Source: an uncultured Verrucomicrobiota bacterium (GTDB lineage Bacteria; Verrucomicrobiota; Kiritimatiellia; CAIVKH01). From it: 64,000 bases of DNA. The position numbers and the translations under genes are program-made. Positions 15,222 to 33,792 of the stretch are shown piece by piece. The number at the start of each line of letters is the position of its first letter. Positions within the stretch are counted from its first letter, which is position 1. The DNA lies in the NCBI GenBank assembly GCA_937996795.1, contig CALKUH010000050.1, forward strand, positions 5,867 to 69,866, written 5' to 3'. The notes beneath the pieces are model-generated. The model had not been told where the DNA came from. It made no database searches and saw only the letters and a program-made list of their open reading frames with translations.

Positions 15222-15236
15222 CGGCCGCGCACCGCG

Positions 15237-16172: not shown

Positions 16173-16419
16173 GAGGGAACCTTTCGGATGAATACGCGCT
16201 ACTCTGTGCCAGATTCGCGCGCGGATGCCAGCGGAAAGAGGAAGCGGGAGTGTTCTTCAACCTAGAGTTCAGAATCGGACGACAGGATTAACGGGATGAA
16301 CAGGATGGGGTTGCGTCGGAATGGGCGTTCGCCACGCGCGTGAAGCCTGCGCACGATACAACCGGTTCCGCGTCAATCCCGTATATCCTGCCCATCCTGT
16401 CAAAATGCTCCTTTTATGC

Positions 16420-17967: not shown

Positions 17968-17970
17968 GGA

Positions 17971-18897
17971 CTACCGCACGTAGCCGAATTTTTTCAGGAG
18001 CCAGAAGTTGCGGTCCCACTTGGGTTCGACCTTCACCCAGAGTTTGACGCGGACGGGTTTGCCGAACCAGGTGGCGAGTTCGCCTTCGGAGGAGCGTGTC
18101 ACCTTGCGCAGCAATCGGCCTTTTTCGCCGATGACGATGCCTTTTTGGGAGAATTTCTGGACGTAGATCGTGGCCTGCACGCTCCACGGCTCCGTCGTGT
18201 CGTCGAGCTCCTCGACGGACACGGCGATCGCGTGCGGCAACTCCTCGCGCAGCACGCCGAAGAGTTTTTCGCGGATGACGTCGGCGATGGCCAGCTTGCG
18301 GGGATAATCCGTGAGCACGTCCTCGGGGAACAGCAGCGGGCCTTCCGGCACCTGCGCGAAGAGCGTGGCGGTCAGCGCGTCGAGCCCCTCGCCTTTCTCC
18401 GCCGAGGCCTCCAGCCACACCGGGTCGGGCCGTTCCACCGCGTCGGCCGGGCGCTGGGCGGGCCACGCCTCGCGCAGCGCGGCGGCGCAGGCGCCGCCGA
18501 GGTCCATCTTGTTCAACACGGCGACGACGGGCAGCGTCTCGCGCTGCAATTTCTTCATCCAGCCGAGGTCCTCGTCGCGCGGCGGCTGGCTCGCGTCGAG
18601 CACGAGCAGCGCGACGTCGGCGCCCTCCGCCGCGCCGCGCGCCATCTGGTTCATCACGCGTCCGAGATCGCCCACGGCCTTGTGCACGCCGGGCGTGTCG
18701 TGGAACACGAGCTGGCCGCGCGGTTCGGTGAGGATGCCGCGCACGACGTTGCGTGTCGTCTGCGCGACGGGCGAGACGATGCTCACCTTTTCGCCGAGGA
18801 TCGCGTTCAGCAGCGACGACTTGCCGACATTCGCGCGGCCGACCAGCGCGATGATGCCGGCGCGGGACTGCGTTGCGGGTTCGGGGGTATCGCTCAC
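17971..18897 (-). CDS. era: GTPase Era
   Basis: G1 GRANVGKSS, G3 DTPG, G4 NKMD and a C-terminal KH domain; 308 aa. The inferred GTG start overlaps the stop of the upstream MBL-fold gene (GTGA). Confidence 0.9.
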   Translation of the reverse strand: MSDTPEPATQSRAGIIALVGRANVGKSSLLNAILGEKVSIVSPVAQTTRNVVRGILTEPRGQLVFHDTPGVHKAVGDLGRVMNQMARGAAEGADVALLVLDASQPPRDEDLGWMKKLQRETLPVVAVLNKMDLGGACAAALREAWPAQRPADAVERPDPVWLEASAEKGEGLDALTATLFAQVPEGPLLFPEDVLTDYPRKLAIADVIREKLFGVLREELPHAIAVSVEELDDTTEPWSVQATIYVQKFSQKGIVIGEKGRLLRKVTRSSEGELATWFGKPVRVKLWVKVEPKWDRNFWLLKKFGYVR

Positions 18898-20279
18898 AGC
18901 TCCACCTCGTCGCCCTGTTTGGGCAGGAACACCTGCGCGTGGCCGTCGCCGCGCAGCCGCTCCGCGAGCGCCTCGCGCTGGTCGGATTCGCCGTGCACGA
19001 GGAATATCCGTTTGGGTTGCGCCTTGCGCGCATAGCGCGCGAGGTCGTCGATGTCGGCGTGTCCGCTGAACGCGTTCAGCGTGGCCACCTCCGCGCGCAA
19101 TGTGAAGAGATCGCCGAAGATGCGGACCTGCGCGACCCCCTCCTGCAGGCGGCGCCCGAGCGTGTAGGACGCCTGATAGCCGACGAGCACGATGCTGTTG
19201 GCCTTGTTTTCGATGCCGTGTTTCAGGTGGTGCAGGATGCGGCCGTGTTCGCACATGCCGGAGGCGGCGATGACGATGCACGGTTTGTCCGACGCCGTGA
19301 TGGCCTTCGAGTCGTTCACGGTGATCGACGGGTGGACCCACGGCGGGCAGGTCAGGCAGCCCATCGCCGCGTAGAGTTTTTTGCCGCCTTCATCGAGGTA
19401 TTCCTGGTGCTGGTCGAACACCTCCGCAACGGCGTTCGCCATCGGGCTGTCGACGTAGATCGGGACCTGCGGGAGACGGCCCTGCAGGATCAGGCTGTTG
19501 AGGTGGTAGATGAGTTCCTGCGCGCGTTCGAGGGCGAAGGACGGGATGAGCACCTTGCCGCCGCGCGCGAGGGTGCGTTTCGCGATGTCGCACAACTGCT
19601 GGTCGGCCATCGCCGCGTCGTCGTGCCGGCGGTTGCCGTAGGTCGATTCGAGCACGAGCACGTCCACGGGGTCCATGAACTCCGGGTCGCGGATCAGCGG
19701 GAGGCCGAAGCGGCCGAGGTCCACGGCATACCCGACGCGCGCGGAGCGGCCGCCTTCCTCCAGGTCGAACACGGTCAGGGCGGAGCCGAGGATGTGGCCG
19801 GCGTCGAGATCGGTGAAGGCGACGCCGGGCGCGAGTTCGATGCGCTGGCGGTAGTCGTGTCCGCGGAGGAGCCGGATCGCGCGTTCCGCGTCGGCGCGCG
19901 AGTAGAGCGGGACCACGGGCGGCAGGCCGCGCCGGTTGGTCTTTTGGTTCAGGTATGCGGCGTCCGCCTCCTGGATGAACGCGGAGTCGCGCAGCATGAT
20001 CGGGGCGAGCGCGGTCGTGGCGCGCGTGGCGAGGATCGGGCCGGCGTAGCCCTGCGCCGCCCACCAGGGCAGGCGTCCGCAGTGGTCGATGTGCGCGTGG
20101 GAGAGCAGCGTGTGCTGGATCGACGCCGGGTCCACGGCGCGCGCGCGGTTGAGCGCCTCGGATTCCGCGCGGCGTCCCTGGAAGAGCCCGCAATCGCGCA
20201 GGACGCGGCAGCCCGCGGCCTCGATGAGGTGCATTGAGCCGGTGACCGTGTCGGTTCCGCCGAGGAATTGTAAGCGCAT
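18894..20279 (-). CDS. MBL-fold metallo-hydrolase, beta-CASP RNA-metabolising family (RNase J / CPSF-like)
   Basis: HxHxDH motif (SHAHIDHCG), beta-CASP signature blocks and a C-terminal RMMBL-like region; 461 aa. Confidence 0.8.
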   Translation of the reverse strand: MRLQFLGGTDTVTGSMHLIEAAGCRVLRDCGLFQGRRAESEALNRARAVDPASIQHTLLSHAHIDHCGRLPWWAAQGYAGPILATRATTALAPIMLRDSAFIQEADAAYLNQKTNRRGLPPVVPLYSRADAERAIRLLRGHDYRQRIELAPGVAFTDLDAGHILGSALTVFDLEEGGRSARVGYAVDLGRFGLPLIRDPEFMDPVDVLVLESTYGNRRHDDAAMADQQLCDIAKRTLARGGKVLIPSFALERAQELIYHLNSLILQGRLPQVPIYVDSPMANAVAEVFDQHQEYLDEGGKKLYAAMGCLTCPPWVHPSITVNDSKAITASDKPCIVIAASGMCEHGRILHHLKHGIENKANSIVLVGYQASYTLGRRLQEGVAQVRIFGDLFTLRAEVATLNAFSGHADIDDLARYARKAQPKRIFLVHGESDQREALAERLRGDGHAQVFLPKQGDEVEL

Positions 20280-20291
20280 CGTGATAGAGTT

Positions 20292-20345
20292 TCGGGTTAA
20301 CAGTGACCAGTGACCAGTGACCAGTGACCAGTGACCAGTAAACTA
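20292..20345. repeat. (GTGACCA)5 tandem heptamer, repeat copy 3
   Basis: cagtgaccagtgaccagtgaccagtgaccagtgaccagtaaactagtg lies in the divergent promoter region between the MBL RNase gene and the EndoIII-like gene. Confidence 0.7.
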
Positions 20346-20365
20346 GTGCGGAGAGTGTAGCGACG

Positions 20366-21055
20366 ATGGGACAGCGTGGCCATGTGAAACCGCCGGTGCG
20401 CGCGGTGTATCGCGCGTTGCACCGCCATTTCGGGCCGCAGCGGTGGTGGCCCGCGCGGACGCGGTTCGAGATGATGGTGGGCGCGATCCTGACGCAGAAC
20501 ACGGCGTGGACGAACGTCGAGCGGGCGATCGCGGAGCTGCGCCGGCGCCGCGTGCTGACGCCGCGCGCGCTGCACGATGTGCCGCCGGCGACGCTCGCGG
20601 GGTGGATCCGTCCCGCGGGCACGCCCACCGTGAAGGCCCGCCGGCTTCGCGCGTTCACGACGTGGGTGATGGAGGCGCACGGCGGTTCGCTGGCCCGTGC
20701 CCTCCGCGCGCCGGCGGCGGAGTTGCGCCGCGCGCTGCTGTCGATCCACGGCATCGGCCCGGAGACGGCGGACTGCATGGTGCTGTATGCGGCGCGCCGC
20801 CCGGTGTTCGTGGTCGATGCCTACACACGCCGTTTTTTGCACCGGCACGGATGGCTCGCGGGCGCGCCGTCGTATGACGACGTGGCGGCGCTTTTCACGC
20901 GGGCGTTGCCGGCGGACGCCGCGTTGTATAATGAATACCACGCGCTGATTGTCGCGCTCGGGAAATCGTATTGCCGGGCGACGCCGCGGTGCGGGGAATG
21001 CCCGTTGGGGCGATGGGGGCGGGTGGAGGAAGGGACGAGGGCGAGGCACGAGTGA
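20366..21055 (+). CDS. Endonuclease III-related HhH-GPD DNA glycosylase-like protein
   Basis: HhH motif (IHGIGPETADCMVLYA) and the GPD region. No C-terminal Fe-S cysteine cluster of the Nth type. Confidence 0.7.
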   Translation: MGQRGHVKPPVRAVYRALHRHFGPQRWWPARTRFEMMVGAILTQNTAWTNVERAIAELRRRRVLTPRALHDVPPATLAGWIRPAGTPTVKARRLRAFTTWVMEAHGGSLARALRAPAAELRRALLSIHGIGPETADCMVLYAARRPVFVVDAYTRRFLHRHGWLAGAPSYDDVAALFTRALPADAALYNEYHALIVALGKSYCRATPRCGECPLGRWGRVEEGTRARHE

Positions 21056-21402
21056 AGCGTGGTTTTTATCTGTGTGTGCTGGCGTTGGGGCTGGCGGGGT
21101 GTGCGTCGCCACTGCCGCCGGCGCCGGGCGTTTTGACGCCGCCGGCGCCGGGCGGGTCCATCGTGCGGGTGAACAGCCGCGATGGCTATGTGGTGGCGGA
21201 ATGTTCACTCTTGCCTTCACCGGGTGAAGAGGCCACCGTCTTTGTTGGCGACCAGCCGGTGGGCCGCCTGCGTTTTACCGGCCGGTCGCGAATGCCGTAT
21301 GCGGTGGCCGACCTCGTGGAGGGCCGGGCCCAAACGGGCGACCGCTGGCGGGTGGTGCCGCCGGAGCGGGCGCCTGACGTGGAGGCGGAAAGACAACCAT
21401 GA
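21052..21402 (+). CDS. Small hypothetical lipoprotein
   Basis: A GTG start overlaps the upstream stop. VKRGFYLCVLALGLAGCASP is a lipobox (LAGC). Confidence 0.45.
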   Translation: MKRGFYLCVLALGLAGCASPLPPAPGVLTPPAPGGSIVRVNSRDGYVVAECSLLPSPGEEATVFVGDQPVGRLRFTGRSRMPYAVADLVEGRAQTGDRWRVVPPERAPDVEAERQP

Positions 21403-21725: not shown

Positions 21726-22895
21726 CTACGGAGTCGCGGCGGGTTCTGCGGGGGCTTCCGCGGCTGCGGTCTCGTTGGTTTCCGCGGGCGGCGTCGGGTG
21801 GGACGCGCCGAATTCAATGAACTGCTGGAAGCGCGGATCGTCGCGGATTGGGGCGAAATCCTCGCTTTTTGCCCACGCGAGGACAAAGGCGGACCCGAAC
21901 CGGCGCGAGGCCTGGGTCAGGGTTTCCACACATTCCGTCACCGCCTGCTGCCGCGCGTGGCTGACGGCGAGGTTGTAGAACGCGACGGAATTGCCGGGAT
22001 CGGATTGCAACACCGTGCGGAAGATGTTTTGCGCATTTCGATAGTCGTTAATGGCCATCAGCGCGACGCCGAGGTTGTTTTGCACCGTGGGGTCGTCGCG
22101 CTTGATCGTCGCGAGGCGGCGCAGGTGCGAGAGGGCGTCCTGCGGTTTGTTCAGCGCGGTCAGCGCGGAGGCGGCGATTTCGTGGGCATCCTCCGAAAAG
22201 GGATCGGCTTCGATGACCCACCGTGCGGCGGCGAGGGCATTTTCGGGTTGTCCGCCGGAGAGGAACACGGAGGCGAGTTGCAGGCGGGCCGTTGTGCGCT
22301 CCGGGTCGCGGGCAAGCACGCGGCGCAGCTCGGCTTCCGCGCCGGCGTAGTCCTGTTTGTGCTCGAGGAACCGCGCCAGTTCGAGGCGAGCGGCGAGCAG
22401 TTCCGGCGCCAGTTCGATCGCGCGCCGCAACTTGGCCTCTCCGCCCGAGTGCCCGGCTTCCGCCTCCGCCGATCCTTCGCTGGTGAGAATGAGGGCCTGT
22501 TTCCAATTCTTGATGTCGTTTGCGATCGGGGTCGGCTGATCCGTGCGGGTGGCCAGCGGGATGGCCGGTTTTTCCGGAGCGGCGGCGGGCGGTGGCGCAT
22601 GGGCCGCGCGCCGCTTCGCCTTGTACTGGGTGTACCCGAGCGCCGCCGCGTACAGCAGCACCACGCCGCCGAGGCTCAGCCAGAGCAGTTTGTTGAACAG
22701 GGTCACGCGGCTGCTGTGTTCGCCGCGCCGCCGCCGGACGCGCGTGCGGTGCGCGTGGTGCGTGTGCGGCGCGGGCCCGGCGCCGGCCTGGAGGTAGGGA
22801 CGGGGGGGCTCGGGGCTCGCGGGGAGCGGATAGGATTTGCGCGCGAGCGGCGGCGCCTCGTCGCGGTGATACATGTCCTTTTTATCGGGGTCCAC
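21726..22895 (-). CDS. Membrane-anchored TPR-repeat protein
   Basis: One TM helix (LLWLSLGGVVLLYAAALGY) followed by several TPR-like repeats. Confidence 0.6.
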   Translation of the reverse strand: MDPDKKDMYHRDEAPPLARKSYPLPASPEPPRPYLQAGAGPAPHTHHAHRTRVRRRRGEHSSRVTLFNKLLWLSLGGVVLLYAAALGYTQYKAKRRAAHAPPPAAAPEKPAIPLATRTDQPTPIANDIKNWKQALILTSEGSAEAEAGHSGGEAKLRRAIELAPELLAARLELARFLEHKQDYAGAEAELRRVLARDPERTTARLQLASVFLSGGQPENALAAARWVIEADPFSEDAHEIAASALTALNKPQDALSHLRRLATIKRDDPTVQNNLGVALMAINDYRNAQNIFRTVLQSDPGNSVAFYNLAVSHARQQAVTECVETLTQASRRFGSAFVLAWAKSEDFAPIRDDPRFQQFIEFGASHPTPPAETNETAAAEAPAEPAATP

Positions 22896-22970
22896 GGGGA
22901 AGAACTAGCCGTGCCCCGGCATCAGGTCAAGCGGCGAAGCGGAATGAGGGGTTCGGGCGATACGTACAAA

Positions 22971-24164
22971 TCATGGCGATGGCGCATTGTTCAAGTACTG
23001 GAAGCCACCGGTCACGTCCCATCGAAAAACCGCAACTGCGTCGCTTATCACGAACGACCGCCCCTCGTTATCAGGATAAATCGCTGGCAACGGACAGGTC
23101 CAGTTGAAAGCCGCAAAGGGCCAAGTATTTGAACTGATACTCTTGGTGTTGAATATGCGCTGGGTTTCCACGGCAACGGCTAACGACCCAAACATTTTGT
23201 ATGTCGAATAGTTGTACCCGCCACCGTCTGGGCATGTATTGCCGAACGGCATACCGCCGGTCGAATAATAATGATCCCTCAAATAGAGCGGACCAAAAGC
23301 ACCAAACCAATTATCTCCGGCGCGAAGGTAGAGATCGACGCCGTGTGCCAGTGAGGAGGTGATATCTTCGATCAACGCATTTGCCCTCTTTCGGGATGAA
23401 GCGATGTCAAAGGCGTCTGGTTCGGACCAGCTTTCTGCGAGCACCCCATAGAAGACGCCATCCAAAAAGTCGTCCTCGGAGACATACGACGCACTAGCCC
23501 AACGAGATTCGTTATCGGAATAGGCCTCGGCACATGTGTGACCCAACCACCAATAGGGGTTGCCTGTCGCGATCTTTTGCTCGGATTGATACGGCCATGC
23601 GTATCTCCCCGTCCATAAGAGACGATTGACGAGCGTTGTCAAACCCGCGTAACCCGAAACATGGACAAAAAGTCCCGTTGTTGGCGATTCTACGAAAAAA
23701 TTAGTTGGGAGCGATGAGGCCTGCAAGAGAGCGGCTTCATTGGTCCAATACGGAAGGTCCGCGCCGGGGTTTGAAACGAACCACGCATCAAAGTTTCCGT
23801 TTGTCGAAAGTGAGTGATTCACGAAATCAGACAAGCTTCCCCGAAGACTTGATTTGCAGTGATGCAAAAGTCCCGAAGACACGCCCCTGTAGGGCAACGG
23901 CGGGGCGCCCCCACCCTGGGCCGCCGTGCGCTCCGAAACAGCGTTTCCGCACCACGTTCCGATGTTAACGGCGTAAATATGGTCCGATATCGCGGGTCGA
24001 CCCGCCAGATTGGTTGTCGAGGCGAGCGCACATGTAGCCGACACGAAGTGCGCAACCAGCCCGAGCGCCACTCTGACGCCAACAACTTTTGATGGCAACG
24101 TCCATGCGCGAAACAGCGCCAAGATAAGGGTCATAAACGTGGATGCTTGCCGGAGATGAATCAT
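22971..24164 (-). CDS. Hypothetical secreted protein (low-GC island gene 4)
   Basis: Signal-like N-terminus (MIHLRQASTFMTLILALF...ATCALAST). Rich in W, Y and N. No recognised domain. Start uncertain. Confidence 0.5.
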   Translation of the reverse strand: MIHLRQASTFMTLILALFRAWTLPSKVVGVRVALGLVAHFVSATCALASTTNLAGRPAISDHIYAVNIGTWCGNAVSERTAAQGGGAPPLPYRGVSSGLLHHCKSSLRGSLSDFVNHSLSTNGNFDAWFVSNPGADLPYWTNEAALLQASSLPTNFFVESPTTGLFVHVSGYAGLTTLVNRLLWTGRYAWPYQSEQKIATGNPYWWLGHTCAEAYSDNESRWASASYVSEDDFLDGVFYGVLAESWSEPDAFDIASSRKRANALIEDITSSLAHGVDLYLRAGDNWFGAFGPLYLRDHYYSTGGMPFGNTCPDGGGYNYSTYKMFGSLAVAVETQRIFNTKSISSNTWPFAAFNWTCPLPAIYPDNEGRSFVISDAVAVFRWDVTGGFQYLNNAPSP

Positions 24165-24293
24165 TACGCGAGACTTCACTTTATTGGGGTGCGCGTCTGC
24201 GGCGATACCTATGTGCGTAAAACAGAAGGCCGGGAAGACAAATCTGTTATTTCGATTCATAGCCGGGATTTCTATAGATTGATCATCGTTGTC

Positions 24294-24893
24294 TTATGAT
24301 CCAGAAAGTATATTAATTACGGTCCCCGAGAAAGCATCCACGGCAACGACGGCGGCATAATCGGGACCCAAGGTGTCCGCAGGCAAAAGATATCCAAAAG
24401 TAACAACGTAGACCTCCCCCGAAAGTACCGCCGTAATCGGCGCCCCTGGTTGCAGTTCGACCGTTCCGGCAATCGCGTCACTCGCGGCGGCAATTGCTTG
24501 AGTTGACGAAATCATGGTGGCACCAACGACGGAAAATACATTCGAATCGAGCAATTGAGAGCCAGAGCGTGCCTCCAACAGCATATTGCTCCATGCGCTG
24601 CTAATCGTGAGGCCTCGGATTTCGAGGTTTGTGGAGGTTGTCGCTATCAAGCTTGTGCCCATCGTTGACACAAATTCTGCGGAGCCGCTGCCTGTCAGCT
24701 TCTTAATTTCGAGGGTAACCGCATTGGTGTTTTCGCCCGGCGATATCAATATTCCTATGGTCGCCGCAGTGTTTGTCGGAATTGAGTAAAACTTTGTGAT
24801 GCTAACTTCAATGGCAATGGCTGCGGCGGGAGCGAAACAGCAACCGAGAAGACTAATTCTCCAAGCGTGCAAGCGAATAGTTTGAGTTTTCAT
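24294..24893 (-). CDS. Hypothetical secreted Ser/Thr-rich beta-type protein (low-GC island gene 3)
   Basis: GGAGA RBS plus ATG. Signal peptide (MKTQTIRLHAWRISLLGCCFAPAAAIA). About 200 aa, rich in Thr, Ser and Ala. Confidence 0.55.
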   Translation of the reverse strand: MKTQTIRLHAWRISLLGCCFAPAAAIAIEVSITKFYSIPTNTAATIGILISPGENTNAVTLEIKKLTGSGSAEFVSTMGTSLIATTSTNLEIRGLTISSAWSNMLLEARSGSQLLDSNVFSVVGATMISSTQAIAAASDAIAGTVELQPGAPITAVLSGEVYVVTFGYLLPADTLGPDYAAVVAVDAFSGTVINILSGS

Positions 24894-24906
24894 GTTAGTC
24901 TCCATC

Positions 24907-26295
24907 TTATGGCGGCAGCGTCCGTCTGTTGGGGCCACTATGATAAAGTTGGGAGGCACTGCCAATTGGATGGTTTGAGGGTATATTTCCGCCCGAGATC
25001 GCGCTGTAGTCCTGCACGACCCCAACAACATCGTAGTTATTGTGAAAAAGGGAATCAGCCCGCGATGGCCCGACGGCCCGACCATGCGGCCGATAGGTTG
25101 TGGGTGTATGTGTATGAAAATAGGCGATTGTATAGGTCGGCCTATCTATTGGTGATGGAGTTAGATGGCTATCAGAGGGCTTGCTTCTCGGTCTTACCGA
25201 TGCGTTTGTGTAGGGGCCAACCGTTGGGCCGATATCTGTCGCGGCAAATTCGTATCGTTGCGACTGGGTGTTGACCTGAATCCAGAAACCCTCCTCCCTC
25301 CGCCCCGTGGAGGTCGTGGCGGCAAGCGTATTTGACCACGCCTGGGACGTGCGCTGTATAACCGCTGTGTTCGCAATAATTTCCTGATAGCTTGGAAACT
25401 GCGCAACGAACTCCCGTTCGGTTGAAATTGCCACGGCATTCGTAAGCCATGCCGTGACCCGAACGTTGAAGGTTCCCGCCACTGCGACCACGGTTGTTAC
25501 TGCCGACGAGGGGCCGTTGGTGATTGTATACCAATTGGTTGACGCCGCCCGACGAACCTCAAACAGGTAGTTTGTCGGCGGGAACCTCGTCGGATATGAC
25601 ATGGCCATAAAGACATTTGTCATCAGAAGTGAATTTGTCGGCGGCATTACGATTAAATCGGGAATCAGAAGCTCGTAGTACGTATCGAGATTCGCCTTAT
25701 AGACGACATCTGTAGCGATGCCTGATCCGAGATAATTGGTGATAAGCGCCCAATTCGTGGGTCCTATGTCGAGAACGTTGGTCTGCGGCGGATAGTCGCC
25801 CAATGAACCGACGAGCACCTGTAGGATGCGGTTCGTCACACCATGAGGGCTGATCCACACGTTCGTGACCGACGTGGTGAAGGAAATCTGGTTTTGCAGA
25901 TACCACAAATAGGCGCCCCATGATCCGTAGGCCTCTTTTGTCCCCCTTACCCATCCCGCGTTGTCATAGATCTTGTTGGTGTGATTTCGGGAGTATGACT
26001 GGTACACCGCAACGACCGACGTCCAGGCGGCATTCGCGCTCTCGTAACCCCAGGCGAATCCCTCGTACTCCACAGCCTTGGTCGCGTTGGTGTTGATGAA
26101 GATGTTTGTGGTCCCCACAACTTCCGTGAGCTGACTGGCCATGTTGACAAGCCGATAAGCTGAAATGTTCGGATAATTTGTGAGGACGATGGGACTGAAA
26201 ACGCGATTGGTGTGATAGAGATTGGTAGTTTGAGCCTGGGCCGCGGAAACCGTTAAGAGTCCGAGAACCATTGCGATGCGACACGCACCATTCAT
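24907..26295 (-). CDS. Hypothetical secreted Asn/Thr-rich protein (low-GC island gene 2)
   Basis: Signal peptide (MNGACRIAMVLGLLTVSAAQA). 462 aa. Its stop overlaps the start of gene 3 by 4 nt. Confidence 0.6.
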   Translation of the reverse strand: MNGACRIAMVLGLLTVSAAQAQTTNLYHTNRVFSPIVLTNYPNISAYRLVNMASQLTEVVGTTNIFINTNATKAVEYEGFAWGYESANAAWTSVVAVYQSYSRNHTNKIYDNAGWVRGTKEAYGSWGAYLWYLQNQISFTTSVTNVWISPHGVTNRILQVLVGSLGDYPPQTNVLDIGPTNWALITNYLGSGIATDVVYKANLDTYYELLIPDLIVMPPTNSLLMTNVFMAMSYPTRFPPTNYLFEVRRAASTNWYTITNGPSSAVTTVVAVAGTFNVRVTAWLTNAVAISTEREFVAQFPSYQEIIANTAVIQRTSQAWSNTLAATTSTGRREEGFWIQVNTQSQRYEFAATDIGPTVGPYTNASVRPRSKPSDSHLTPSPIDRPTYTIAYFHTHTPTTYRPHGRAVGPSRADSLFHNNYDVVGVVQDYSAISGGNIPSNHPIGSASQLYHSGPNRRTLPP

Positions 26296-28187
26296 GGGGC
26301 CGCTGGTCCTCCGACGAAAAAGTTGGTCGCCAGGGTCATAAGTTTTTCCTTCAACTCGTTCAGATCTGCCTGCGAGCCTGGCGGGTGGCTAAACGTTGGC
26401 GCGGTTGCATTGATGGCGGTCCAGTGCGCACGGATTTTTGATCGCACGATGGCAAGTGCAGTAATTCCGTCTTGCGCGTCGTCGGGATTCATTCCCGAAA
26501 CAAACCCCTCCTCAAAGTCCGTGAATCCGTCGCCGTCTGAATCAAGTCCGAGCGTAATTCCGACACCTGCGACCCGATTGCTGACGGGTATAGCGTTCAG
26601 GGCGTGTTGCCCGGCGGGCTCGCCGGGCGTGTAAACTCCGTTGTAGTCCTCATCCACAAACGCGCGAATCCAGTAGTTGGACACGGGCATTCCCGCGATG
26701 GAGTAATTCATCGGGAATGAAGCGAAATACTGCTCGCCGGTCAGGCCGCCGCTGGTGATCCACGGCAGAACCGTCTGATGCGTCGCGTCCCAACTGTTCG
26801 AGCTGGTGATGGCCACCACGTACACATCGCCCGTCGCCGCGCCTGAATAGCTGATGGTTCCCCACACCGACGGCACATCCTGCATGGCAATGTCGATGCC
26901 GCTCACGTCGCCCGTGACCAGCAGCGGGTTGCCGGCGTGTGCGCCCCATGGCTCCCACGCGTCGCGCGTGAGGTTGCCGTTCACGTCCCGGAACGCCTTG
27001 ATCCAGTAGCTTTGGTGATTGCCGATCTCGCTGTTGACGTAGGCGGCGGGGCTTGTCAGCGTCAACGACTTGGCCAGCGACCAGCTTTCGGACTCCGTGG
27101 CGAAGACGACATAAACCTTCCCGGTCTCCGGGCCGGTGTAGCTGACGCTGCCGGAGACCGTGGCCGGGTGCGAGGTCGCGGCGTTCGGGTCGGTCTGATA
27201 TACCATGAGTTCACGTCCATCGGGATAGCCGTCGCCGTCCGTGTCGGTCGTCGCGTCCGCTGCTGCGTACATGCGGACGGGGTATCCGGTCTGGACCCAG
27301 TTGTTTGTATCCACCCACACGAGGTTGGTGCCGCCGGTGGGCAGGTCTTTGGCGGCGAAGCTCCAGATTTCCGGGACCAGCTCGCTGCACATGAAGATGT
27401 CGAGGCCATTGGTGAACCCGGCCGGATAGACGATGGTCATGCTGAGGCCGTTGGTAACCTTAGCCATTTTCGAGAAATAGATATTGGTGGTGGTGCTCTC
27501 CTGCAAGAGCATCATCATCATTTCGCCCCCGCCTTCCAGTTCCGCCTGGGCGGCAAGGACTTGGGCTTTCGCGTACAGCCAGTGCTCCACGTCATCAGGT
27601 TCGATAAGGCGGGCGGTGATTTGCACGCGGGCGGGGTCAAGCATTCGCTCCCAATACGCGCGGGTGTCCGGGTGCGCACGCGTGGTGTAGAGCGCGGGCA
27701 TTTTGTCCTTGAGGTAGGCAAAGGGGTCGTAGCCGGTGGCCGGGGACAGCGTATGGATCAACTGGCCTTCGAGATTGTAGAATTCGACGGCGCGCGTGAC
27801 CGGGTTCTCCGCTATGGTGACGGGGTATACCGGCACGCTGTATTCGCGGAGGCCGACCAAGCCCTTTACGAACTCCTTCGGGAACTTTTCCGCCGTGAAG
27901 GGAATTAATCCCGGCTCGCCGGGCTGGCCTTTGAGCACGAAGTCGGCAACCGGCGGCACAATGGGCAGCAGGGCGTATTGCTGCGGGACGAACCACTGTT
28001 CGAGATCGTAGATCGTCTCGACGCGGGCGGCAAAAATGGCGTCGTATTCGGCTTTGTCGAAGTAGACCGCCTCCTCCTTTTCCGTGGCGACCGCCAGTAT
28101 CAGCGTGGCGGCGAGGACGACGACGGCGAGTCCGGAAAGCAGCCGCAGGTCAACCCGTCCGAACAGGCGTTTGAGTTTCTGCACCAT
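26292..28187 (-). CDS. Membrane-anchored surface protein with two tandem roughly 110-aa repeats and TSP type-3-like Ca-binding motifs (low-GC island gene 1)
   Basis: N-terminal TM anchor (LLSGLAVVVLAATLILAVA). DTDGDGYPDGRE and DSDGDGFTDFEEG motifs. An internal repeat (SYTGPETGKVYVVFA...YWIKAF / SYSGAATGDVYVVAI...YWIRAF). Confidence 0.6.
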   Translation of the reverse strand: MVQKLKRLFGRVDLRLLSGLAVVVLAATLILAVATEKEEAVYFDKAEYDAIFAARVETIYDLEQWFVPQQYALLPIVPPVADFVLKGQPGEPGLIPFTAEKFPKEFVKGLVGLREYSVPVYPVTIAENPVTRAVEFYNLEGQLIHTLSPATGYDPFAYLKDKMPALYTTRAHPDTRAYWERMLDPARVQITARLIEPDDVEHWLYAKAQVLAAQAELEGGGEMMMMLLQESTTTNIYFSKMAKVTNGLSMTIVYPAGFTNGLDIFMCSELVPEIWSFAAKDLPTGGTNLVWVDTNNWVQTGYPVRMYAAADATTDTDGDGYPDGRELMVYQTDPNAATSHPATVSGSVSYTGPETGKVYVVFATESESWSLAKSLTLTSPAAYVNSEIGNHQSYWIKAFRDVNGNLTRDAWEPWGAHAGNPLLVTGDVSGIDIAMQDVPSVWGTISYSGAATGDVYVVAITSSNSWDATHQTVLPWITSGGLTGEQYFASFPMNYSIAGMPVSNYWIRAFVDEDYNGVYTPGEPAGQHALNAIPVSNRVAGVGITLGLDSDGDGFTDFEEGFVSGMNPDDAQDGITALAIVRSKIRAHWTAINATAPTFSHPPGSQADLNELKEKLMTLATNFFVGGPAAP

Positions 28188-28293
28188 CTTCTTTGCTCAC
28201 CGGTGTTCGCGATCCGTTCACAGCGGCCCAATGATTGAAATCCTCACTATGGTTTGATCCGGTGTCAAGTCTGTTATCCAGTAATGCTGATGC

Positions 28294-28590
28294 GTGCCCA
28301 ATGCCGATACATACCTGACCGTCGTGGCAACTGTTGTACGTCTACTCCAAGAAGAGCGCACAAAAAAGAAATTTTCCATGAATGCAGTGGCCGTGCGCGC
28401 CGGCTTGTCCCAACAGATGGTTAGCTACGTTGAGCGCGGAATGCGGAATCCAACGCTCGAAACACTTTTGCGAATTTCGAATGCCCTCGACGTTGATCTT
28501 GCGTTGATTTTGAGGCGCGCCGTCGCCGCCCGCGCTACTCCATCGGGCCGCCGGGCGTCGTGTCGTGCGGCTGCAGGTCCTCGGGGATGA
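28294..28590 (+). CDS. XRE-family helix-turn-helix transcriptional regulator
   Basis: VRLLQEERTKKKFSMNAVAVRAGLSQQMVSYVERGMRNPTLETLLRISNALDVDL matches the Cro/C1 HTH. The low-GC 5' half lies in the island, and the 3' end overlaps the convergent TPR lipoprotein gene. Confidence 0.7.
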   Translation: MPNADTYLTVVATVVRLLQEERTKKKFSMNAVAVRAGLSQQMVSYVERGMRNPTLETLLRISNALDVDLALILRRAVAARATPSGRRASCRAAAGPRG

Positions 28591-29701
28591 CGAGGGCGGG
28601 GTTGAGTTGCCGGAGCGGGACGAGGAGCTGCGGCACCCGGTCGTGTTGGCCGGATTTGGCGTAGGCCTGGGCGAGGCGCACGCCGATTTCAATGCGGGTT
28701 TCCGGGGAGAGCGTGCGCGCGCGGTGCCACGCGCGTTCGAGCACGGGGACGGCCTCGGCGTGGCGGCCTTGTTTCATCAACACGAAGCCCTGTGTGTCGA
28801 GCAGGCGCGGATTGCTGGGCTCCAGCAGCACCGCGCGGCGCGCGAGTTCGTCCGCCTCCTCCAGCGCGCGGCCCTGCTCGGCCAGCATCCACGACAGGTT
28901 GTTGGCGGCGCGCACATGGCGCGGGTTGAGCGCGAGCGCGCGCCGCAGCAAGTGTTCGGCGTCCGCGGGACGGCCCCGGCTCCACGCGCGAAGGCCCAGG
29001 CTGGCGAGCAGGTCCGGGTTGTTCGGATCGCGCGCGAGGGCCTCCTCGCCGATCGCGTCGGCGCGCGCCGACTGTCCGGTCCGGTCCATGAACCGGATCA
29101 GGTTCACGCGCTCGCCGCTGCGCATGGGCCAGGTCGCGCGCTCCGGCGGAGAGGCGGTGAGCATCCAGTAGCGGACGGGCCGCCAGGCGGTGACAAAATC
29201 CACTTCGCTGAGGGCGACCTCGCGCCCGTCGTCATACAGCACCGTGAGCGCGCCCGAGGCGGGCGCTGCCGTCACAATGGCGAACCGGCGCCCGCGCTGG
29301 CGTCCGGACCCGGCGGCGAGTTGGACCACGACGGGGCAGCCCGCGGCGACGCGGTCGCGCACCTGCGGGAGGTTGGCGTAGCTGGCGTGCGTCCACAACC
29401 CGAGGCCGGGCAGCAGGACGAGCAGCGCCTCCTCGGTGGTGAGGCCGTCGGCCTTGAGGTCGTTGAGGCGCGCGAGGTGCGGCGCGGGGTCATCGGCATG
29501 CGCCCAATAGTGGAGCAGCCATGGCACGAGCCAGTCGCCCGCATCGGAATAGGCGACGCGCAGGTGATCGGGAAACCGCTCCTTCATCATCGCGGATGGC
29601 GGGACCGGCTCCCGCTTGAGCGGCGACGGCAGCGGCGCGGTTGCGCACCCGGCCAGCAGCAGCGCGATCAGCGCCAGGCATCCGGGCGGGCGCGCGCGCA
29701 T
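28535..29701 (-). CDS. Lipoprotein with an N-terminal globular domain and C-terminal TPR repeats
   Basis: Start MRARPPGCLALIALLLAGCATAP (lipobox LAGC). C-terminal TPR-like repeats (NNLSWMLAEQGRALEEA, LLDTQGFVLMKQGRHAEA). Confidence 0.65.
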   Translation of the reverse strand: MRARPPGCLALIALLLAGCATAPLPSPLKREPVPPSAMMKERFPDHLRVAYSDAGDWLVPWLLHYWAHADDPAPHLARLNDLKADGLTTEEALLVLLPGLGLWTHASYANLPQVRDRVAAGCPVVVQLAAGSGRQRGRRFAIVTAAPASGALTVLYDDGREVALSEVDFVTAWRPVRYWMLTASPPERATWPMRSGERVNLIRFMDRTGQSARADAIGEEALARDPNNPDLLASLGLRAWSRGRPADAEHLLRRALALNPRHVRAANNLSWMLAEQGRALEEADELARRAVLLEPSNPRLLDTQGFVLMKQGRHAEAVPVLERAWHRARTLSPETRIEIGVRLAQAYAKSGQHDRVPQLLVPLRQLNPALVIPEDLQPHDTTPGGPME

Positions 29702-30810: not shown

Positions 30811-33792
30811 TCAGGCTTGGGTCGGGTGTTCCTCGCGGTGCAGGGCGCGGCGGACGGCGTCGAGCAGGTCGTCCGCGCGATAGGGCTTGGGCAGGATGCC
30901 GGAGAAACCGGCGCTCTTGAACTGGGCGAGCACTTCGTCGGGCGCATAGCCGCTGGAGACGATGGCGTTCAGGCCCGGATCGCGCGCGCGCAGGTGCCGC
31001 AGCGCCTCGCGGCCGCCCATGCCGCCGGGCACGGTGATGTCGAGGATGGCGAGATCGACGCGCCGCCCCGCGCGGAGCTCCTCGTCGAGCAGGCGGACGG
31101 CCTCTTCGCCGCGGTCCGCGACGAGCACCTCGTAGCCGGCCCTGCCCAGGGCGCGCTGCGCGAGGCCGAGGATGGGCTTTTCGTCGTCCATCACCAGGAT
31201 GCGGCCCTGCCCGGTCGCGGCGCGCGGCGCGGCGGCGGCTTCCGCCGGGAGCTCGGCGGTTTCCGATGCAGCCGGCAGGTAGAACGTAAAGGCGGCGCCG
31301 TTCCCGGGTTCCGACGTCACCTCGATCAGGCCGCCGTGTTTCTGCACGATGGAAAAGCACATCGTGAGGCCGAGTCCGCTGCCTTTTTTCTTGGTCGTGA
31401 AATACGGGTCGAAGATGCGGCCGATGAGGCGGTCCGGGATGCCGGTGCCGGTGTCGGACACGCGGACCTGCACATAGCGGCCGGGCGCGAGGCGCGGCAC
31501 CTCGTTTGCGCCGACGTGCCGGTTGGCGGTCTCGATCGTGATGACGCCGCCCGCGGGCATGGCCTGGTCGGCGTTGATGATCAGGTTCTGGATGACCTGT
31601 GTGATCTGGCCGCTGTCGATTTCCGCCCGCCACGTGTCCGGGTCGATCTTGTACACGCAGCGCGAGGCGGACCCGCGCACGGTGAAGCCGGCGGCCTCGC
31701 GGACCACGGCGCCGACGTCGTGCAGTTTCTTGATCGGCGCGCCGCCCTTCGCGAAGGTCAGCAACTGGTGCGTGAGGTCGCGGGCGCGGATGGCCGCGCG
31801 CTCCGCGTCCTGCAGCGCCTCGGCCAGCTCCGCGGGCGGCGTGCCGGGCTCGCGCGCGGCGGAGATGTTGCCGAGGATGGCGGTCAGGATGTTGTTGAAG
31901 TCGTGGGCGAGGCCGCCGGCGAGCAGGCCGAGCGACTCCAGCTTCTGCGTGCGCATGCGCTCCTCTTCGATGCGCCGCCGCTCGGAGAGGTCCTGCACGA
32001 TGGCGATCCCGCTGGTGATCGCGCCCGCCGCGTCGAACAGCGGGGCCGCGCGCAGGCTGATCCACGTGTCCTCCTCCAGCGCGATGAACCCGCGCGAGCC
32101 TTCGTGGTAGCCCTCGCCGCCATCGAGCGCGGCGCGCAGGGTCGGCAGGATGGCCGCGTCCGCCAGTTCTTCCAGCGGGGCGCCCGCGAGGTCGCGCCGG
32201 CTCTTGCGCAGCAGCGCGGCGAAGCGGTCGTTGAATTCCGTGATGCGCAGTTCGCGGTCGTAGTGGAAGACGCCGGCGGGCGCATACTCGAAGAGCAGCC
32301 GGTAGCGTTCGCCCGCCTCGCGGTGCTGCTGCATCTCGGTGCGCAGCGCGCGGTTCGCCTCCGCGAGCTCGCGGGTGCGCTGGTGGACGCGCTGTTCGAG
32401 GTCGGCGCTCAGCGCGCGCTGTTCGCGCTCGGCGGCGGCGAGGCGCAGGGCGCTTTCCCACAGCCGGTGATGCCGGGTGAAGAAATCGAGGATCAACAGC
32501 ACCAGCAGCGCGCCGAGGCCCAGGCCGATCAGCCGCCAGCGCGCGATGGACTGCAGATAGTCGTCGGCGGCGATGTCGAGGCCCAGCGCGAGGCGCACGC
32601 GCCCGTCGCCCTCCTCGCGCAGCGCGGGCACGGTGGCCGACACCCAGCGCCCCCAGCGGTCGGTGAACGGGCCGAAGGTGTAGGGCTTGGCGGTGTTGAA
32701 GAAGGTGTAGTCCTGCGGGGAGATGTCGCCTTCGTAGAGGTCGCCGGGCCGGACACGGGCCGACGGGGTCCTCGCTTCCGACGAGGCGTAGAACATGAAA
32801 CGGCCGCCGCGCAGGCCATAGAGGTAGATCTGCTGCACATCGGGAAACGCGAGGCGCGCGCGCGTCAGCATGGATTCGACTTCATGCACCACGGGGTGCC
32901 GCTCGTCCGTGGGGCTGGCGCGAAGGGCCGAGAGCAACGAGGGATCGAGCAGGTTGGCCACGCTGGAGGCGCGCTCGAGGATGGAGGTGCGCAGCATGCG
33001 TCCCGCGAGCCGCCCGAGCGCATCCGTCCCGATCCACGTCGCGAGAAACACGCCGGCGAGTGCACTGATCGTGGTCTTCAGACGCAGGGGCGCTTCGTGC
33101 TGGAGCGCGTGGCCCGTGCGCGGCAGGTGGGCCATGGAAATCGTCCACAGGGCCGCGGCGAGGCCGGCGGCGATCACGGCGCGCACGACTTCCATCGGCA
33201 GGCCGGTCCCGTGCAGCCACGCCTGCGTGTGGAGGACCTGCGACGGGCCGAGCGCGGAGGGGCCGGTGAAGAGGCCCGCGGCGATGGCGTAGAGCAACAG
33301 GAAGAAGGCGGCAGCCTTGAGCCCGCCCCGGCCGGGTCCCTCGCTATCGCGCGCGGCGCGCCGGAAGGCGAGGCTCGCGAGAAACGCGCCGGGCAGGGCC
33401 AGCCCGTAGCGCACGGCCGCCTCCCACTCCGCCGGGCCCCCGCGGGCGGCCAGCACCACGGTGAGGACGAGCAGGCCGGGGAACAGCCCGCGGCGCCCCG
33501 GCAGCGGGCCGTATGCCGCGCATCCGCGGAGGCCGAAATCGAGCAGGATCGCGAACGAGACCGCGAGCAGGCCGATGCGGAGGATCGGCGGGGCGACGGC
33601 CTCCCACGCCGGCGCGGCGCCCGCCCACCACTCATACAAGCCGTGCAGGGCGGCGAACAGGGACAGCCGTGGCCACGGCAGGCGCGAGGCGCCGTGGCGG
33701 CGGGGCGTCTGCGCGAAGGCCGCGAGGATCAGGAAGGCCGATCCGTAGAGAAAATAGATGAAATCCATGTGCTGTTGGAACGTCGCACTCAT
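30811..33792 (-). CDS. Hybrid sensor histidine kinase/response regulator (multi-TM N-terminal sensor, PAS, HisKA, HATPase_c, REC)
   Basis: About 8 N-terminal TM helices plus a periplasmic segment. H-box LAGGLAHDFNNIL, G-boxes DTGTGIP and GSGLGL. The C-terminal receiver has the phospho-acceptor Asp in LAILDITVPGG. Confidence 0.88.
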   Translation of the reverse strand: MSATFQQHMDFIYFLYGSAFLILAAFAQTPRRHGASRLPWPRLSLFAALHGLYEWWAGAAPAWEAVAPPILRIGLLAVSFAILLDFGLRGCAAYGPLPGRRGLFPGLLVLTVVLAARGGPAEWEAAVRYGLALPGAFLASLAFRRAARDSEGPGRGGLKAAAFFLLLYAIAAGLFTGPSALGPSQVLHTQAWLHGTGLPMEVVRAVIAAGLAAALWTISMAHLPRTGHALQHEAPLRLKTTISALAGVFLATWIGTDALGRLAGRMLRTSILERASSVANLLDPSLLSALRASPTDERHPVVHEVESMLTRARLAFPDVQQIYLYGLRGGRFMFYASSEARTPSARVRPGDLYEGDISPQDYTFFNTAKPYTFGPFTDRWGRWVSATVPALREEGDGRVRLALGLDIAADDYLQSIARWRLIGLGLGALLVLLILDFFTRHHRLWESALRLAAAEREQRALSADLEQRVHQRTRELAEANRALRTEMQQHREAGERYRLLFEYAPAGVFHYDRELRITEFNDRFAALLRKSRRDLAGAPLEELADAAILPTLRAALDGGEGYHEGSRGFIALEEDTWISLRAAPLFDAAGAITSGIAIVQDLSERRRIEEERMRTQKLESLGLLAGGLAHDFNNILTAILGNISAAREPGTPPAELAEALQDAERAAIRARDLTHQLLTFAKGGAPIKKLHDVGAVVREAAGFTVRGSASRCVYKIDPDTWRAEIDSGQITQVIQNLIINADQAMPAGGVITIETANRHVGANEVPRLAPGRYVQVRVSDTGTGIPDRLIGRIFDPYFTTKKKGSGLGLTMCFSIVQKHGGLIEVTSEPGNGAAFTFYLPAASETAELPAEAAAAPRAATGQGRILVMDDEKPILGLAQRALGRAGYEVLVADRGEEAVRLLDEELRAGRRVDLAILDITVPGGMGGREALRHLRARDPGLNAIVSSGYAPDEVLAQFKSAGFSGILPKPYRADDLLDAVRRALHREEHPTQA

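Follow-up and report, generated by a model that had tools for sequence, protein, structure and literature searches.

In T6SS effector-immunity pairs of the Tae/Tai type, the toxin acts in the periplasm, and for this reason its immunity protein has a signal peptide. Toxin domains of the Tox-JAB-2/DUF4329 type are described by the residue motif E, H[ST]H, S, D, and Imm65, the immunity protein of Tox-JAB-1, is exceptional in being exported as a lipoprotein (PMC3482391). Moreover, proteins combining an N-terminal DUF4157 with a C-terminal toxin constitute a recognised class of eCIS toxins (PMC8213781, Geller et al. 2021). Here, we analysed a block of low GC content and its genes within a stretch of 64,000 nt (the window). 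Its features are the following:

22930..28510 (approximate, ~5.6 kb), no strand: compositionally foreign block, defined by GC and third-codon-position GC (GC3), without terminal repeats
22971..24164, minus strand: gene D, 397-398 aa from MIHLRQ, last gene of the operon
24294..24893, minus strand: gene C, 199-200 aa from MKTQT, with a signal peptide, starting 13 nt past the stop of B
24907..26295, minus strand: gene B, 462 aa, its start overlapping the stop of A (ATGA)
26292..28187, minus strand: gene A, 631 aa, conserved leader of the operon
28294..28590, plus strand: XRE/Cro-C1 type HTH gene (HTH_3, E 2.4e-14; GC3 0.56)

Between ~22.93 and 28.50 kb the GC content is 50-61%, against 68-73% outside; the profile is not uniform, and the sharp drop that the initial annotation had placed at ~22.95-28.35 kb is real. 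In 500-nt windows, GC is 0.50-0.57 at 23.0-26.7 kb and 0.59-0.65 at 26.5-28.5 kb, compared with 0.65-0.75 in the flanks (whole-window mean 0.675, sd 0.049), and all segments below 0.60 except two fall inside the block when the whole window is scanned. With 100-nt windows the edges were located at ~22.90-22.95 kb and 28.48-28.52 kb, where the GC steps are sharp (within ~100 nt). GC3 is 0.78 in A, 0.61 in B, 0.53 in C and 0.59 in D, whereas it reaches 0.83-0.92 in six flanking genes. Because GC3 falls too, the drop is a codon-usage effect that goes beyond amino-acid composition. The latter is itself unusual, as had been noted, with N, T, S, Y and W enriched ~twofold in B, C and D relative to the flanking proteins. 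Two host TPR genes, both on the minus strand (21726-22895 and 28535-29701), flank the block and share no kinship outside their TPR repeats. In agreement with the initial annotation, neither an integrase nor a transposase is present among the called neighbour genes, and no direct or inverted repeats flank the block. The window contains no tRNA, and the block encodes no outer-membrane or delivery machinery.

The XRE gene, correctly described as abutting the block, is divergent from A, with 106 nt of 49% GC between them. Its HTH domain ends at about residue 75 (~nt 28520), and the tail of the ORF runs into the high-GC 3' end of the TPR gene, which places the right edge of the island inside the XRE ORF. 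Its position beside A is not conserved in other loci, and the XRE gene is no conserved partner of the operon. At one locus (L028), a gene for a CI-like HTH protein (35% identical over 57 aa) and a tyrosine integrase gene follow D.

The lengths given earlier for the four minus-strand genes (631, 462, 200 and 398 aa) and the ATGA overlap, which joins A and B, were confirmed. Read from the sequence, all four N-termini are charged, then hydrophobic, and end in AVA, AQA, AIA or ALA, as expected from the signal or anchor sequences announced for them. Rather than separate hypothetical genes, the four form an operon that recurs as A-B-(small gene)-D, with ~10 A-B-C-D loci in PVC metagenomes, no two of them in the same genomic context. 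Downstream of A come a protein with the B head (B_N) and one with the D head (D_N) in the window, L021, L024, L028, L029, L003/L016 and L005. L025 has an operon of B_N and D_N proteins with a first gene that is cut by the end of the locus and was not recognised as A; a D_N protein is found in eight operon loci. The operon is PVC-specific as far as present data go, having so far been found in Kiritimatiellia-type (PVC) bacteria only. Mobile-element genes are neighbours in two loci: terminase, ArdC and RadC in L021, the CI-like HTH and integrase in L028. In GC, A (0.61) and B-D (0.51-0.53) come close to the homologues in genomes of 54-59% GC. The GC3 contrast, this similarity, the genomic context that differs in each genome and the mobile neighbours of L021 and L028 together argue for a horizontal origin, and the view of the block as an accessory island fits both its foreign look and the unrelated contexts of the homologous operons in every genome examined. 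A scan for relatives found none, nor was a sister genome without the island found; insertion is thus deduced only from composition and context. GC falls along the operon in every carrier genome, a gradient that could also stem from selection on these genes and to that extent counts against transfer.

The leader A consists of a helix of signal or anchor type (~14-37), a novel N-terminal module (A_N, ~45-312) with no structural match found, a TSP3 calcium-binding motif, two tandem transthyretin/Ig-like β-sandwich domains (~340-545) and two C-terminal helices. The TSP3-like motifs and the internal tandem repeat reported for this protein were both recovered: TSP3_bac matches residues 315-335 above the Pfam cut-off (E 2.9e-6), a second DxDGDG motif lies at 551-556, and ~340-435 aligns with ~436-547 at 34% identity (E 3e-13). 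Apart from TSP3 and HTH, the statement that no family is recognisable holds, and the head domains of A, B and D match no Pfam or NCBIfam model. Within the A family, one member matches a YD-repeat model, the homologue P0018 has a dockerin match, and in L007/L008 a 1921-aa RHS protein and small ORFs come after the gene of the A family.

B comprises a signal peptide (1-22, AQA|QTT), a conserved stretch of low model confidence (23-70), B_N (~70-215), an Fn3/Ig domain (~220-300) and a JAB-like C-terminal domain (B_C, ~300-462) with the motifs RREEGFWI, FHTHTP and GPSRAD. The 58 homologues have in common with B either its head or its tail. The 36 B_N proteins end in at least 21 unrelated tips (last 170 aa), some with HExxH or GxSxG motifs, and Pfam detects Abhydrolase_6 and FlgD_ig tails behind B_N and eCIS_core or GT2 heads ahead of B_C. 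The data show that B and, likewise, D each pair a conserved N-terminal head with an interchangeable C-terminal tail. In the B_C alignment, all 20 sequences have E44, H104, H106, S121 and D124, and in an AF2 model of B (pLDDT 88) HTH lies at the end of a β-strand and SxxD at the start of a helix. None of the 20 sequences reaches a Pfam cut-off, with weak matches to Prok-JAB (two members) and DUF4329 (one of the 20, E 0.012); judged by its residues, the tail of B is shown to carry the E / H-T-H / S-x-x-D signature of JAB (JAMM) metallo-enzymes. At least 12 eCIS_core (DUF4157) proteins end in B_C, and one of them (P0075) lies in a locus of sheath, tube, baseplate, AAA and VgrG-like genes. In one protein, encoded in a polysaccharide-type, sugar-metabolism neighbourhood, B_C is joined to a GT2 glycosyltransferase; this fusion is odd for a toxin and was counted against the effector reading.

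Homologues of C occur only where B carries B_C, namely in the window and as two copies in L021. The small genes directly 3' of the B_C genes beside eCIS (L026) and GT2 (L027) match positions 130-201 of the C HMM (E 1e-15 and 8e-13), so that the C-terminal ~70 aa of C are encoded directly after B_C in every context examined. C has a signal peptide here, and its relatives beside the eCIS and GT2 proteins are presumably cytoplasmic. In L021, a remnant of a B_C 3'-end (12019-12186, GIPAGHTLGGAAMLYHSGPERRRTP) lies immediately 5' of the second C copy. The constant position of the C domain after B_C and this orphan tip with its second C are signatures of polymorphic toxin-immunity loci, and the C-terminal ~70 aa of C would represent the cognate partner of B_C, a putative immunity or inhibitor domain. 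A PepSY match of C spans the whole profile, weakly and below the cut-off (E 0.017).

D, whose longest ORF extends to 24260 (429 aa), has a signal sequence and a conserved D_N (residues ~65-220, counted on the 429-aa form), and its C-terminal part, rich in Cys and Trp, is variable. Only two matches were found by a word-index search and 84 cluster representatives by full HMMER against 1.84 billion proteins, mostly over residues ~65-220 only; none of 70 members matches a Pfam family, and D has no recognisable enzyme motif. No candidate immunity gene follows D, which may therefore not be a toxin, a point against the effector reading.

We consider it probable that horizontal transfer brought in the block, as one copy of a PVC-specific operon for polymorphic effectors and their immunity. 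This reading is drawn from the recurrence of the operon, the tail polymorphism of B_N proteins and the invariant catalytic-type residues of B_C, together with the presence of B_C in an eCIS locus, its C partner, the orphan module of L021 and the link between A and RHS. Against it count, besides the points on D and the GT2 fusion, the lack of delivery genes in the block and of a structural match for A_N. In the mechanism that we propose, all four proteins would leave the cytoplasm via Sec. A, as a calcium-binding TSP3 and β-sandwich scaffold, would form a conserved carrier or presentation platform onto which the B and D heads may dock, residues 23-70 of B, conserved but unstructured, being a candidate docking strand. 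The JAB-like tail of B would act as a toxic or enzymatic warhead in the periplasmic or extracellular compartment, and C would neutralise B in the periplasm of the producer. D could be one more effector or else a targeting subunit that varies, and the XRE gene presumably arrived as cargo on the same element as the operon, which it may repress. Recombination would exchange tails and partner genes, and such exchange could explain why GC declines along the operon in all carrier genomes.

An alternative that we regard as unlikely is a secreted hydrolase complex serving nutrient acquisition, not warfare. A would then be a calcium-dependent dockerin/cohesin-like scaffold, the B family a set of exchangeable degradative enzymes (proteases, lipases, a JAB-like peptidase) and C a PepSY-like inhibitor or chaperone of the pro-peptide type, keeping the peptidase silent until export. 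The HExxH, GxSxG and Abhydrolase_6 tips, the full-length PepSY match, the dockerin match in P0018, the four Sec signals and the sugar-metabolism context of the GT2 fusion all agree with it. However, the eCIS_core toxin marker precedes B_C and its partner in an eCIS locus, the orphan tip with a second partner in L021 is a typical toxin-immunity arrangement, A is linked with an RHS protein, and the family, unlike core catabolic systems, is rare and patchily distributed, with links to mobile elements. We give still less weight to the surface adhesion module that the initial annotation favoured, i.e. structural β-sandwich and calcium-binding proteins devoid of enzymatic or toxic function: an accessory block of exported proteins it is, but the adhesion part, although compatible with the TSP3 motifs and two Ig/transthyretin-like domains of A, the Fn3 domain of B and the lack of an enzyme motif in D, is not supported, since B_N bears many unrelated, enzyme-like tails, B_C has invariant catalytic-type residues and occurs in an eCIS locus, and the small partner gene co-varies.

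It is also improbable that the block is not foreign but a long-resident operon whose low GC stems from amino-acid composition or from selection (e.g. for low expression or fast evolution). The same downward gradient in every carrier and a window devoid of att sites, tRNA and integrase would suit such an operon; against it, the drop is not limited to GC1 and GC2, since GC3 lies 0.25-0.35 below the flanks, the steps are abrupt, the XRE ORF crosses from low-GC into host high-GC DNA, and the homologues change context from genome to genome, twice beside mobile-element genes. Finally, an Akkermansia-type pilus-like system (Amuc_1098-1102) with A as the Amuc_1099 equivalent is hardly credible. Of 26 family members, 18 are matched by the NCBIfam model Amuc_1099_fam (best E 2e-15), and A is matched at E 1.7e-5, but the matches are confined to 30-70-residue stretches at model positions ~105-182 that coincide with TSP3 repeats; a score above the 50-bit cut-off is reached by a single member, through the sum of several short TSP3 segments, and the TSP3 proteins CglD and MtsD are matched by the same stretches. 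No secretin, PilM or pilin genes were found nearby, and this reading is effectively refuted.

Compared with the polymorphic toxin systems of the Rhs/CDI type (Zhang, Iyer, Aravind et al. 2012, PMC3482391), the effector-immunity operon proposed here differs in being split into a separate conserved leader A and the head-plus-tail proteins B and D, in heads (A_N, B_N, D_N) that match no described trafficking domain (TPS, PAAR/VgrG, LXG/WXG, MuF, MafB-N, DUF4157), in a putative immunity protein that has a signal peptide as well as an additional N-terminal domain, and in the absence of identifiable secretion machinery. It shares with them the conserved N-terminal part followed by many unrelated C-terminal tips, the small cognate gene directly downstream, the orphan tip remnant with an extra partner gene (L021), a GC of tip and partner below that of the conserved part, mobile and patchily distributed loci, and an A homologue directly 5' of an RHS protein. 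B_C departs from Tox-JAB-2/DUF4329 (PF14220) by an insertion of ~35 residues that separates the Glu from the HTH strand, and from classical JAMM proteins by an HxH-SxxD spacer of 14 residues instead of 7; its conserved residues are those of the Tox-JAB-2/DUF4329 motif, and it likewise stands at the extreme C-terminus of multidomain proteins. As in eCIS toxins (PMC8213781), B_C ends an eCIS_core protein within a complete eCIS-like locus, where a C-like gene comes next. The window has neither eCIS genes nor DUF4157, and B_C stands here behind a Sec signal and B_N, which implies a different export route. In contrast to Tae/Tai pairs, T6SS genes are lacking here and B itself carries a Sec signal; C is not NTF2-like as far as can be read from its residues, another difference from the Tox-JAB systems. 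The signal peptide on C, the putative immunity protein, nevertheless resembles that of the Tae/Tai immunity proteins and parallels the export of Imm65.

The low-GC block of the window is occupied by four co-directional genes, A to D, and by the divergent regulator gene that abuts them.

26292–28187, minus strand, A, 631 aa
24907–26295, minus strand, B, 462 aa
24294–24893, minus strand, C, ~199 aa
22971–24164, minus strand, D, ~397 aa (429 aa from the first ATG)
28294–28590, divergent from A–D, XRE-type HTH gene

The four minus-strand ORFs were recovered where the initial annotation had placed them, together with the ATGA overlap of A and B; C starts 13 nt past B. The signal or anchor sequences that it had described are visible in each product as a charged and then hydrophobic N-terminal segment ending in AVA, AQA, AIA or ALA, and the XRE identity of the divergent gene also holds. 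An unusual amino-acid composition had been noted by eye, and N, T, S, Y and W are indeed about twice as common in B–D as in the flanking proteins. Likewise, the lack of a recognizable family persisted in the databases, as the conserved N-terminal domains of A, B and D (A_N, B_N and D_N) and the partner domain represented by C all lie outside Pfam, NCBIfam, PHROGs and PADLOC. Searches of PHROGs and PADLOC with A–D returned nothing, PDB sequence searches with A, B, D and a profile of the C-terminal domain of B (B_C) gave nothing meaningful (a carbonic anhydrase was matched by chance over a short 'FHFHTP' stretch), and hhalign detected no relationships among A_N, B_N, B_mid, B_C, D_N, D_C and C.

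The sharp fall in GC that had been claimed for this block was reproduced by calculation in 500-nt windows, with values of 0.50–0.57 at 23.0–26.7 kb and 0.59–0.65 up to 28.5 kb, against 0.65–0.75 in both flanks. Mean GC across the window is 0.675 (sd 0.049), and values below 0.60 lie nearly all within the block, whose edges fall at ~22.90–22.95 kb and 28.48–28.52 kb (100-nt windows). Codon usage bears this out: GC3 is 0.83–0.92 in six flanking genes but 0.78 (A), 0.61 (B), 0.53 (C), 0.59 (D) and 0.56 (XRE) in the block. The composition step is real, strong and seated in codon choice. On the right, the border falls within the XRE ORF, the tail of which runs into the high-GC end of a host TPR gene; since the last ~23 residues of this ORF are encoded by high-GC host-like DNA, the annotated C-terminus of XRE is probably an accident of insertion. 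The 3' ends of this ORF and of the convergent TPR gene overlap by 56 nt (window 28535–28590). The sole other low-GC patch in the window (0.54–0.55 at ~7.0–7.75 kb) contains a minus-strand ORF of 131 aa (7239–7634) belonging to the PD-(D/E)XK nuclease superfamily (Pfam PDDEXK_3, E 1.6e-34), located between a diaminopimelate-decarboxylase-like (5953–7272) and an argininosuccinate-synthase-like (7663–8865) ORF, both named from their translations. The nuclease ORF resembles a small selfish or inserted gene.

The initial annotation had seen no mobility gene or repeat at the block, and in our search of the window no tRNA, terminal repeats, integrase or transposase were found among its neighbours; the window as a whole contains none of the hallmarks of integrative elements (integrase/recombinase, att repeats or tRNA target). 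The flanking TPR genes show no paralogy beyond their TPR repeats, a promoter and terminator scan gave nothing above chance, and A, B and the island DNA all went unmatched in plasmid and phage collections. A single scan of genome contigs for relatives, made with the flanking 993-aa histidine kinase, gave distant kinases alone (≤43% identity), the source genome itself being missed. Three large, adjacent PAS-HisKA-HATPase-receiver hybrid histidine kinases (~947–998 aa) lie beside SOD and BON genes (window 30811–36000 and locus L002 1–7377).

We then inspected the gene order of homologous loci, defined as contigs encoding A and B homologues. HMMs for the A N-module, the B head (built from BLAST-confirmed segments) and the D head support the gene assignments; the B_C HMM was derived from alignment A5 of this domain. 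A metagenome scan with alignment A1 was keyed on the TSP3 calcium motif of A and yielded L016 as its one useful locus; L016 and L003 are one and the same.

Gene order in the window and in homologous loci (lengths in aa; unnamed numbers are proteins located between B and D; C' is a second copy of C)
Window: A631-B462-C200-D398
L021: A632-B468-C204-C'198-D370
L028: A630-B551-194-D355
L029: A624-B699-216-D347
L024: A575-B554-276-106-171-D442
L003/L016: same order, with B and D fragmented
L005: A669-D423-B...

In L003/L016 (11897–14645), B is split into ORFs of 169 and 217 aa and D into ORFs of 252 and 101 aa, which suggests a decaying operon copy or assembly frameshifts. L025 carries a further B_N–D_N set on the minus strand, and also a B_N protein without a neighbouring A. 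L007/L008 departs from this order: downstream of its A homologue come a 1921-aa RHS-repeat protein and then a run of small ORFs.

Every homologous operon lies in another neighbourhood (trpE/G, an ABC transporter, dapB/folK/panB or glycogen phosphorylase). The closest full homologue is found on a 4.3-Mb contig (L021, JGI Ga0558716_00002), where the regions 1212–7400 and 14781–21121 encode a terminase large subunit, ArdC-N/MPTase-PolyVal, RadC, RtcB, a ResIII helicase and an N6/N4 methyltransferase; these surroundings look like a prophage remnant, an integrative element or a defence-island context. In L028 (GCA_964503335.1; 1777–2247 and 13258–14899), a ThsB_TIR (Thoeris-type) gene is located upstream of the operon homologue. 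This homologue is the only one adjoined by an integrase, a CI-like HTH gene and a tyrosine integrase gene lying immediately downstream. At every locus GC and GC3 fall from A to D relative to the flanks; in L029, GC3 is 0.82–0.84 in the flanks, 0.73 in A, 0.59 in B, 0.54 in the middle gene and 0.45 in D. The whole operon family, like Rhs loci, shows this GC step, which is not solely a mark of recent arrival. In the window, GC is 0.61 in A and 0.51–0.53 in B–D, resembling the values in genomes of 54–59% GC, and the contrast is merely larger here because the host is at 68% GC. We consider it very probable that the operon was acquired horizontally, presumably by insertion.

B is a modular protein. 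Its 58 homologues form three classes: full-length relatives (51–69% identity), proteins sharing residues ~1–215 only and then diverging, and proteins sharing residues ~215/298–461 only, behind another N-terminus. Among the 36 proteins with the B_N head, the last 170 residues fall into 21 unrelated clusters, several of which show HExxH(xxGxxH) or GxSxG motifs, and the Pfam matches are Abhydrolase_6 and FlgD_ig. B residues 23–70 show strong conservation but no structure in the monomer model, a combination that would suit a docking segment. The B_C tail is preceded by Pfam eCIS_core (PF13699, formerly DUF4157) in 12 proteins and by a GT2 glycosyltransferase in two. One of the latter, P0072 (L027, 8001–10122), joins GT2 to B_C through a Pro-rich linker and an Ig domain in a sugar-nucleotide/glycosyltransferase neighbourhood, which is unexpected for a putative toxin tail.

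In the alignment of 20 B_C sequences, E44, H104-T-H106, S121 and D124 are invariant ('RREEGFWI ... FHTHTP ... GPSxxD'). JAMM/JAB metallo-enzymes carry this E / HxH / SxxD set, and the signature tabulated by Zhang et al. for the polymorphic-toxin domain Tox-JAB-2 (DUF4329) is exactly that of B_C (PMC3482391). HxH and SxxD are separated by 14 residues instead of 7. In the AF2 model of B (pLDDT 88), HTH closes a β-strand and SxxD starts the next helix, as expected of a JAB fold. JAB-clan profiles run against the 20 B_C sequences stayed below their cut-offs (best Prok-JAB, E 0.025 in 2/20; DUF4329, E 0.012 in 1/20), PDB sequences gave no JAB match to B_C, and a comparison with one RadC was negative. 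Judged from its sequence, the B tail is JAB-like.

Homologues of C were found solely in operons with a B_C-bearing B, namely in the window and as the two copies in L021, whereas operons with other B tips carry different, unrelated signal-peptide proteins between B and D. More generally, in the window, L021, L026 and L027 the coding sequence for a C-type domain comes directly after that for B_C, and other tips have none behind them. The decisive comparison is with loci other than the operon. In L026, the protein P0075 (eCIS_core plus B_C) is encoded within a sheath, tube, baseplate, AAA and spike locus, and its next gene encodes a 96-aa protein matching the last ~70 residues of C (E 1e-15); the gene following P0072 encodes a 76-aa protein matching the same region (E 8e-13). 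Neither small protein has a signal peptide; C and the B of the window both have one. This pattern suits a partner that has to share a compartment with the tail, be it the one of synthesis or the one reached by export. Conserved adjacency identifies C as the cognate partner of B_C and a putative immunity protein. The eCIS-like locus L026 (JGI Ga0633546_0000274) comprises sheath, gp19 tube, baseplate, Pvc16_N, AAA, Phage_GPD, base_V and gp25 genes, with a prolipoprotein diacylglyceryl transferase (LGT) gene embedded in the cluster.

Between C and C' of L021, a 168-nt stretch (12019–12186) encodes a remnant of the 3' end of B_C (GIPAGHTLGGAAMLYHSGPERRRTP, against ...GIPASHPLNSAAQLYPSGPQRRNTPP), followed by C'. 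Such an orphan tip, accompanied by a partner gene of its own, is what tip replacement classically leaves behind in polymorphic toxin loci; the window itself contains no such remnant. C also gave a match to the PepSY peptidase-inhibitor profile (PF03413) over positions 2–59 of 60, at 15–15.8 bits (E 0.017–0.031), below the 24-bit cut-off, and four relatives did not match; the similarity is only a hint.

D has a head-and-tail build similar to that of B. An exhaustive HMMER search of 1.84 billion representatives with D yielded only 84 proteins, most of them matching D residues ~65–220 only, with C-terminal parts variable in length and sequence. The 51 C-terminal clusters among 69 sequences are an upper estimate, since these sequences represent clusters at 50% identity and their own alignment served to build the HMM. 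None of 70 family members carried a Pfam domain, and D is not followed by a partner gene.

A search of 5.8 billion protein clusters detected only 29 homologues of A, every one of them from MAGs or metagenomes of Kiritimatiellia, Verrucomicrobia or Lentisphaerae. The calcium motifs first read from the sequence correspond to TSP3_bac (PF18884) at 315–335 (27.5 bits, cut-off 25) and to a second DxDGDG motif; D315, D317, D319 and E326 of the TSP3 DxDxDGxxDxxE repeat are invariant across the family. The internal repeat that had been proposed is a true duplication (34% identity, E 3e-13). The AF2 model (pLDDT 81) consists of a helix, an α/β module (~45–215), a Gly/Met-rich linker, a β module (~237–312), the first TSP3 motif, two transthyretin/Ig-like sandwiches, the second calcium motif and two C-terminal helices. 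A match to the NCBIfam family of the Amuc_1099 pilus-like system protein (NF042425) reached 24.5 bits (cut-off 50, full-length) and was restricted, in every member tested, to the TSP3 stretch (model positions ~105–182 for A). A always stands first in the operon, also ahead of the RHS toxin, which suggests a role as carrier or presentation protein; that it is a dedicated carrier for B and D is a tentative proposal.

We regard the locus as probably a polymorphic effector–partner operon. A secreted complex of degradative enzymes with a pro-peptide-like inhibitor, which would agree with the hydrolase-like tips and the PepSY hint, seems unlikely, as it leaves the eCIS context, the orphan module and the RHS link unexplained. 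The surface or adhesion module favoured by the initial annotation is not supported as it was put: a purely adhesive function disregards the invariant catalytic-type residues of B_C and the co-varying partner gene, and we consider it quite improbable. That the block is not foreign we judge slightly less probable again; the level of GC3, the sharpness of the borders and the changing genomic contexts all speak against it. A pilus-like system, suggested by Amuc_1099, has hardly any probability left, as that similarity is TSP3 only.

Under the effector–partner reading, all four products would be exported by Sec, and A would form a Ca-stabilized scaffold at the envelope or surface, to which B and D may attach through their conserved heads. 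The JAB-like tail of B would be the active warhead, with a substrate that would be periplasmic or extracellular, e.g. an isopeptide-type bond, because the partner C is predicted to be exported; C would block this tail in the producer. D may be a second cargo or a variable targeting subunit, and XRE may be cargo of the element, possibly a repressor. More speculatively, A, B_N and D_N might constitute an undescribed, PVC-specific export or presentation route for polymorphic toxins, in which the Ca-binding scaffold A recruits interchangeable Sec-exported effectors via two unrelated adaptor heads, and RHS toxins too. If true, this would be a new class of toxin-trafficking module and not one more toxin tip.

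To our knowledge, very little has been learned about secreted effectors and interbacterial weapons in Kiritimatiellota, Lentisphaerota and Verrucomicrobiota, and our literature search found no paper tying Kiritimatiellota to polymorphic toxins. The operon offers a compact, testable four-gene system, with three unannotated conserved domains (A_N, B_N and D_N) that behave like trafficking or adaptor modules. Its putative JAB-like warhead is common to a Sec-dependent system and to contractile injection systems, and the recognizable cognate partner domain could serve the annotation of both.

The logic of the operon is that of the polymorphic toxin systems (sensu Zhang et al. 2012), already known and, from the comparison of loci, well supported here. 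As in those systems, B combines a conserved N-terminal part with many unrelated C-terminal domains, the downstream gene for the C-type domain, with a predicted immunity function, co-varies with the tip, and a displaced tip–immunity cassette lies downstream, as represented by the B_C remnant and C' of L021. Outside the databases searched lie the A_N, B_N and D_N domains, the split into a leader and two head–tail proteins, and the C-type partner domain.
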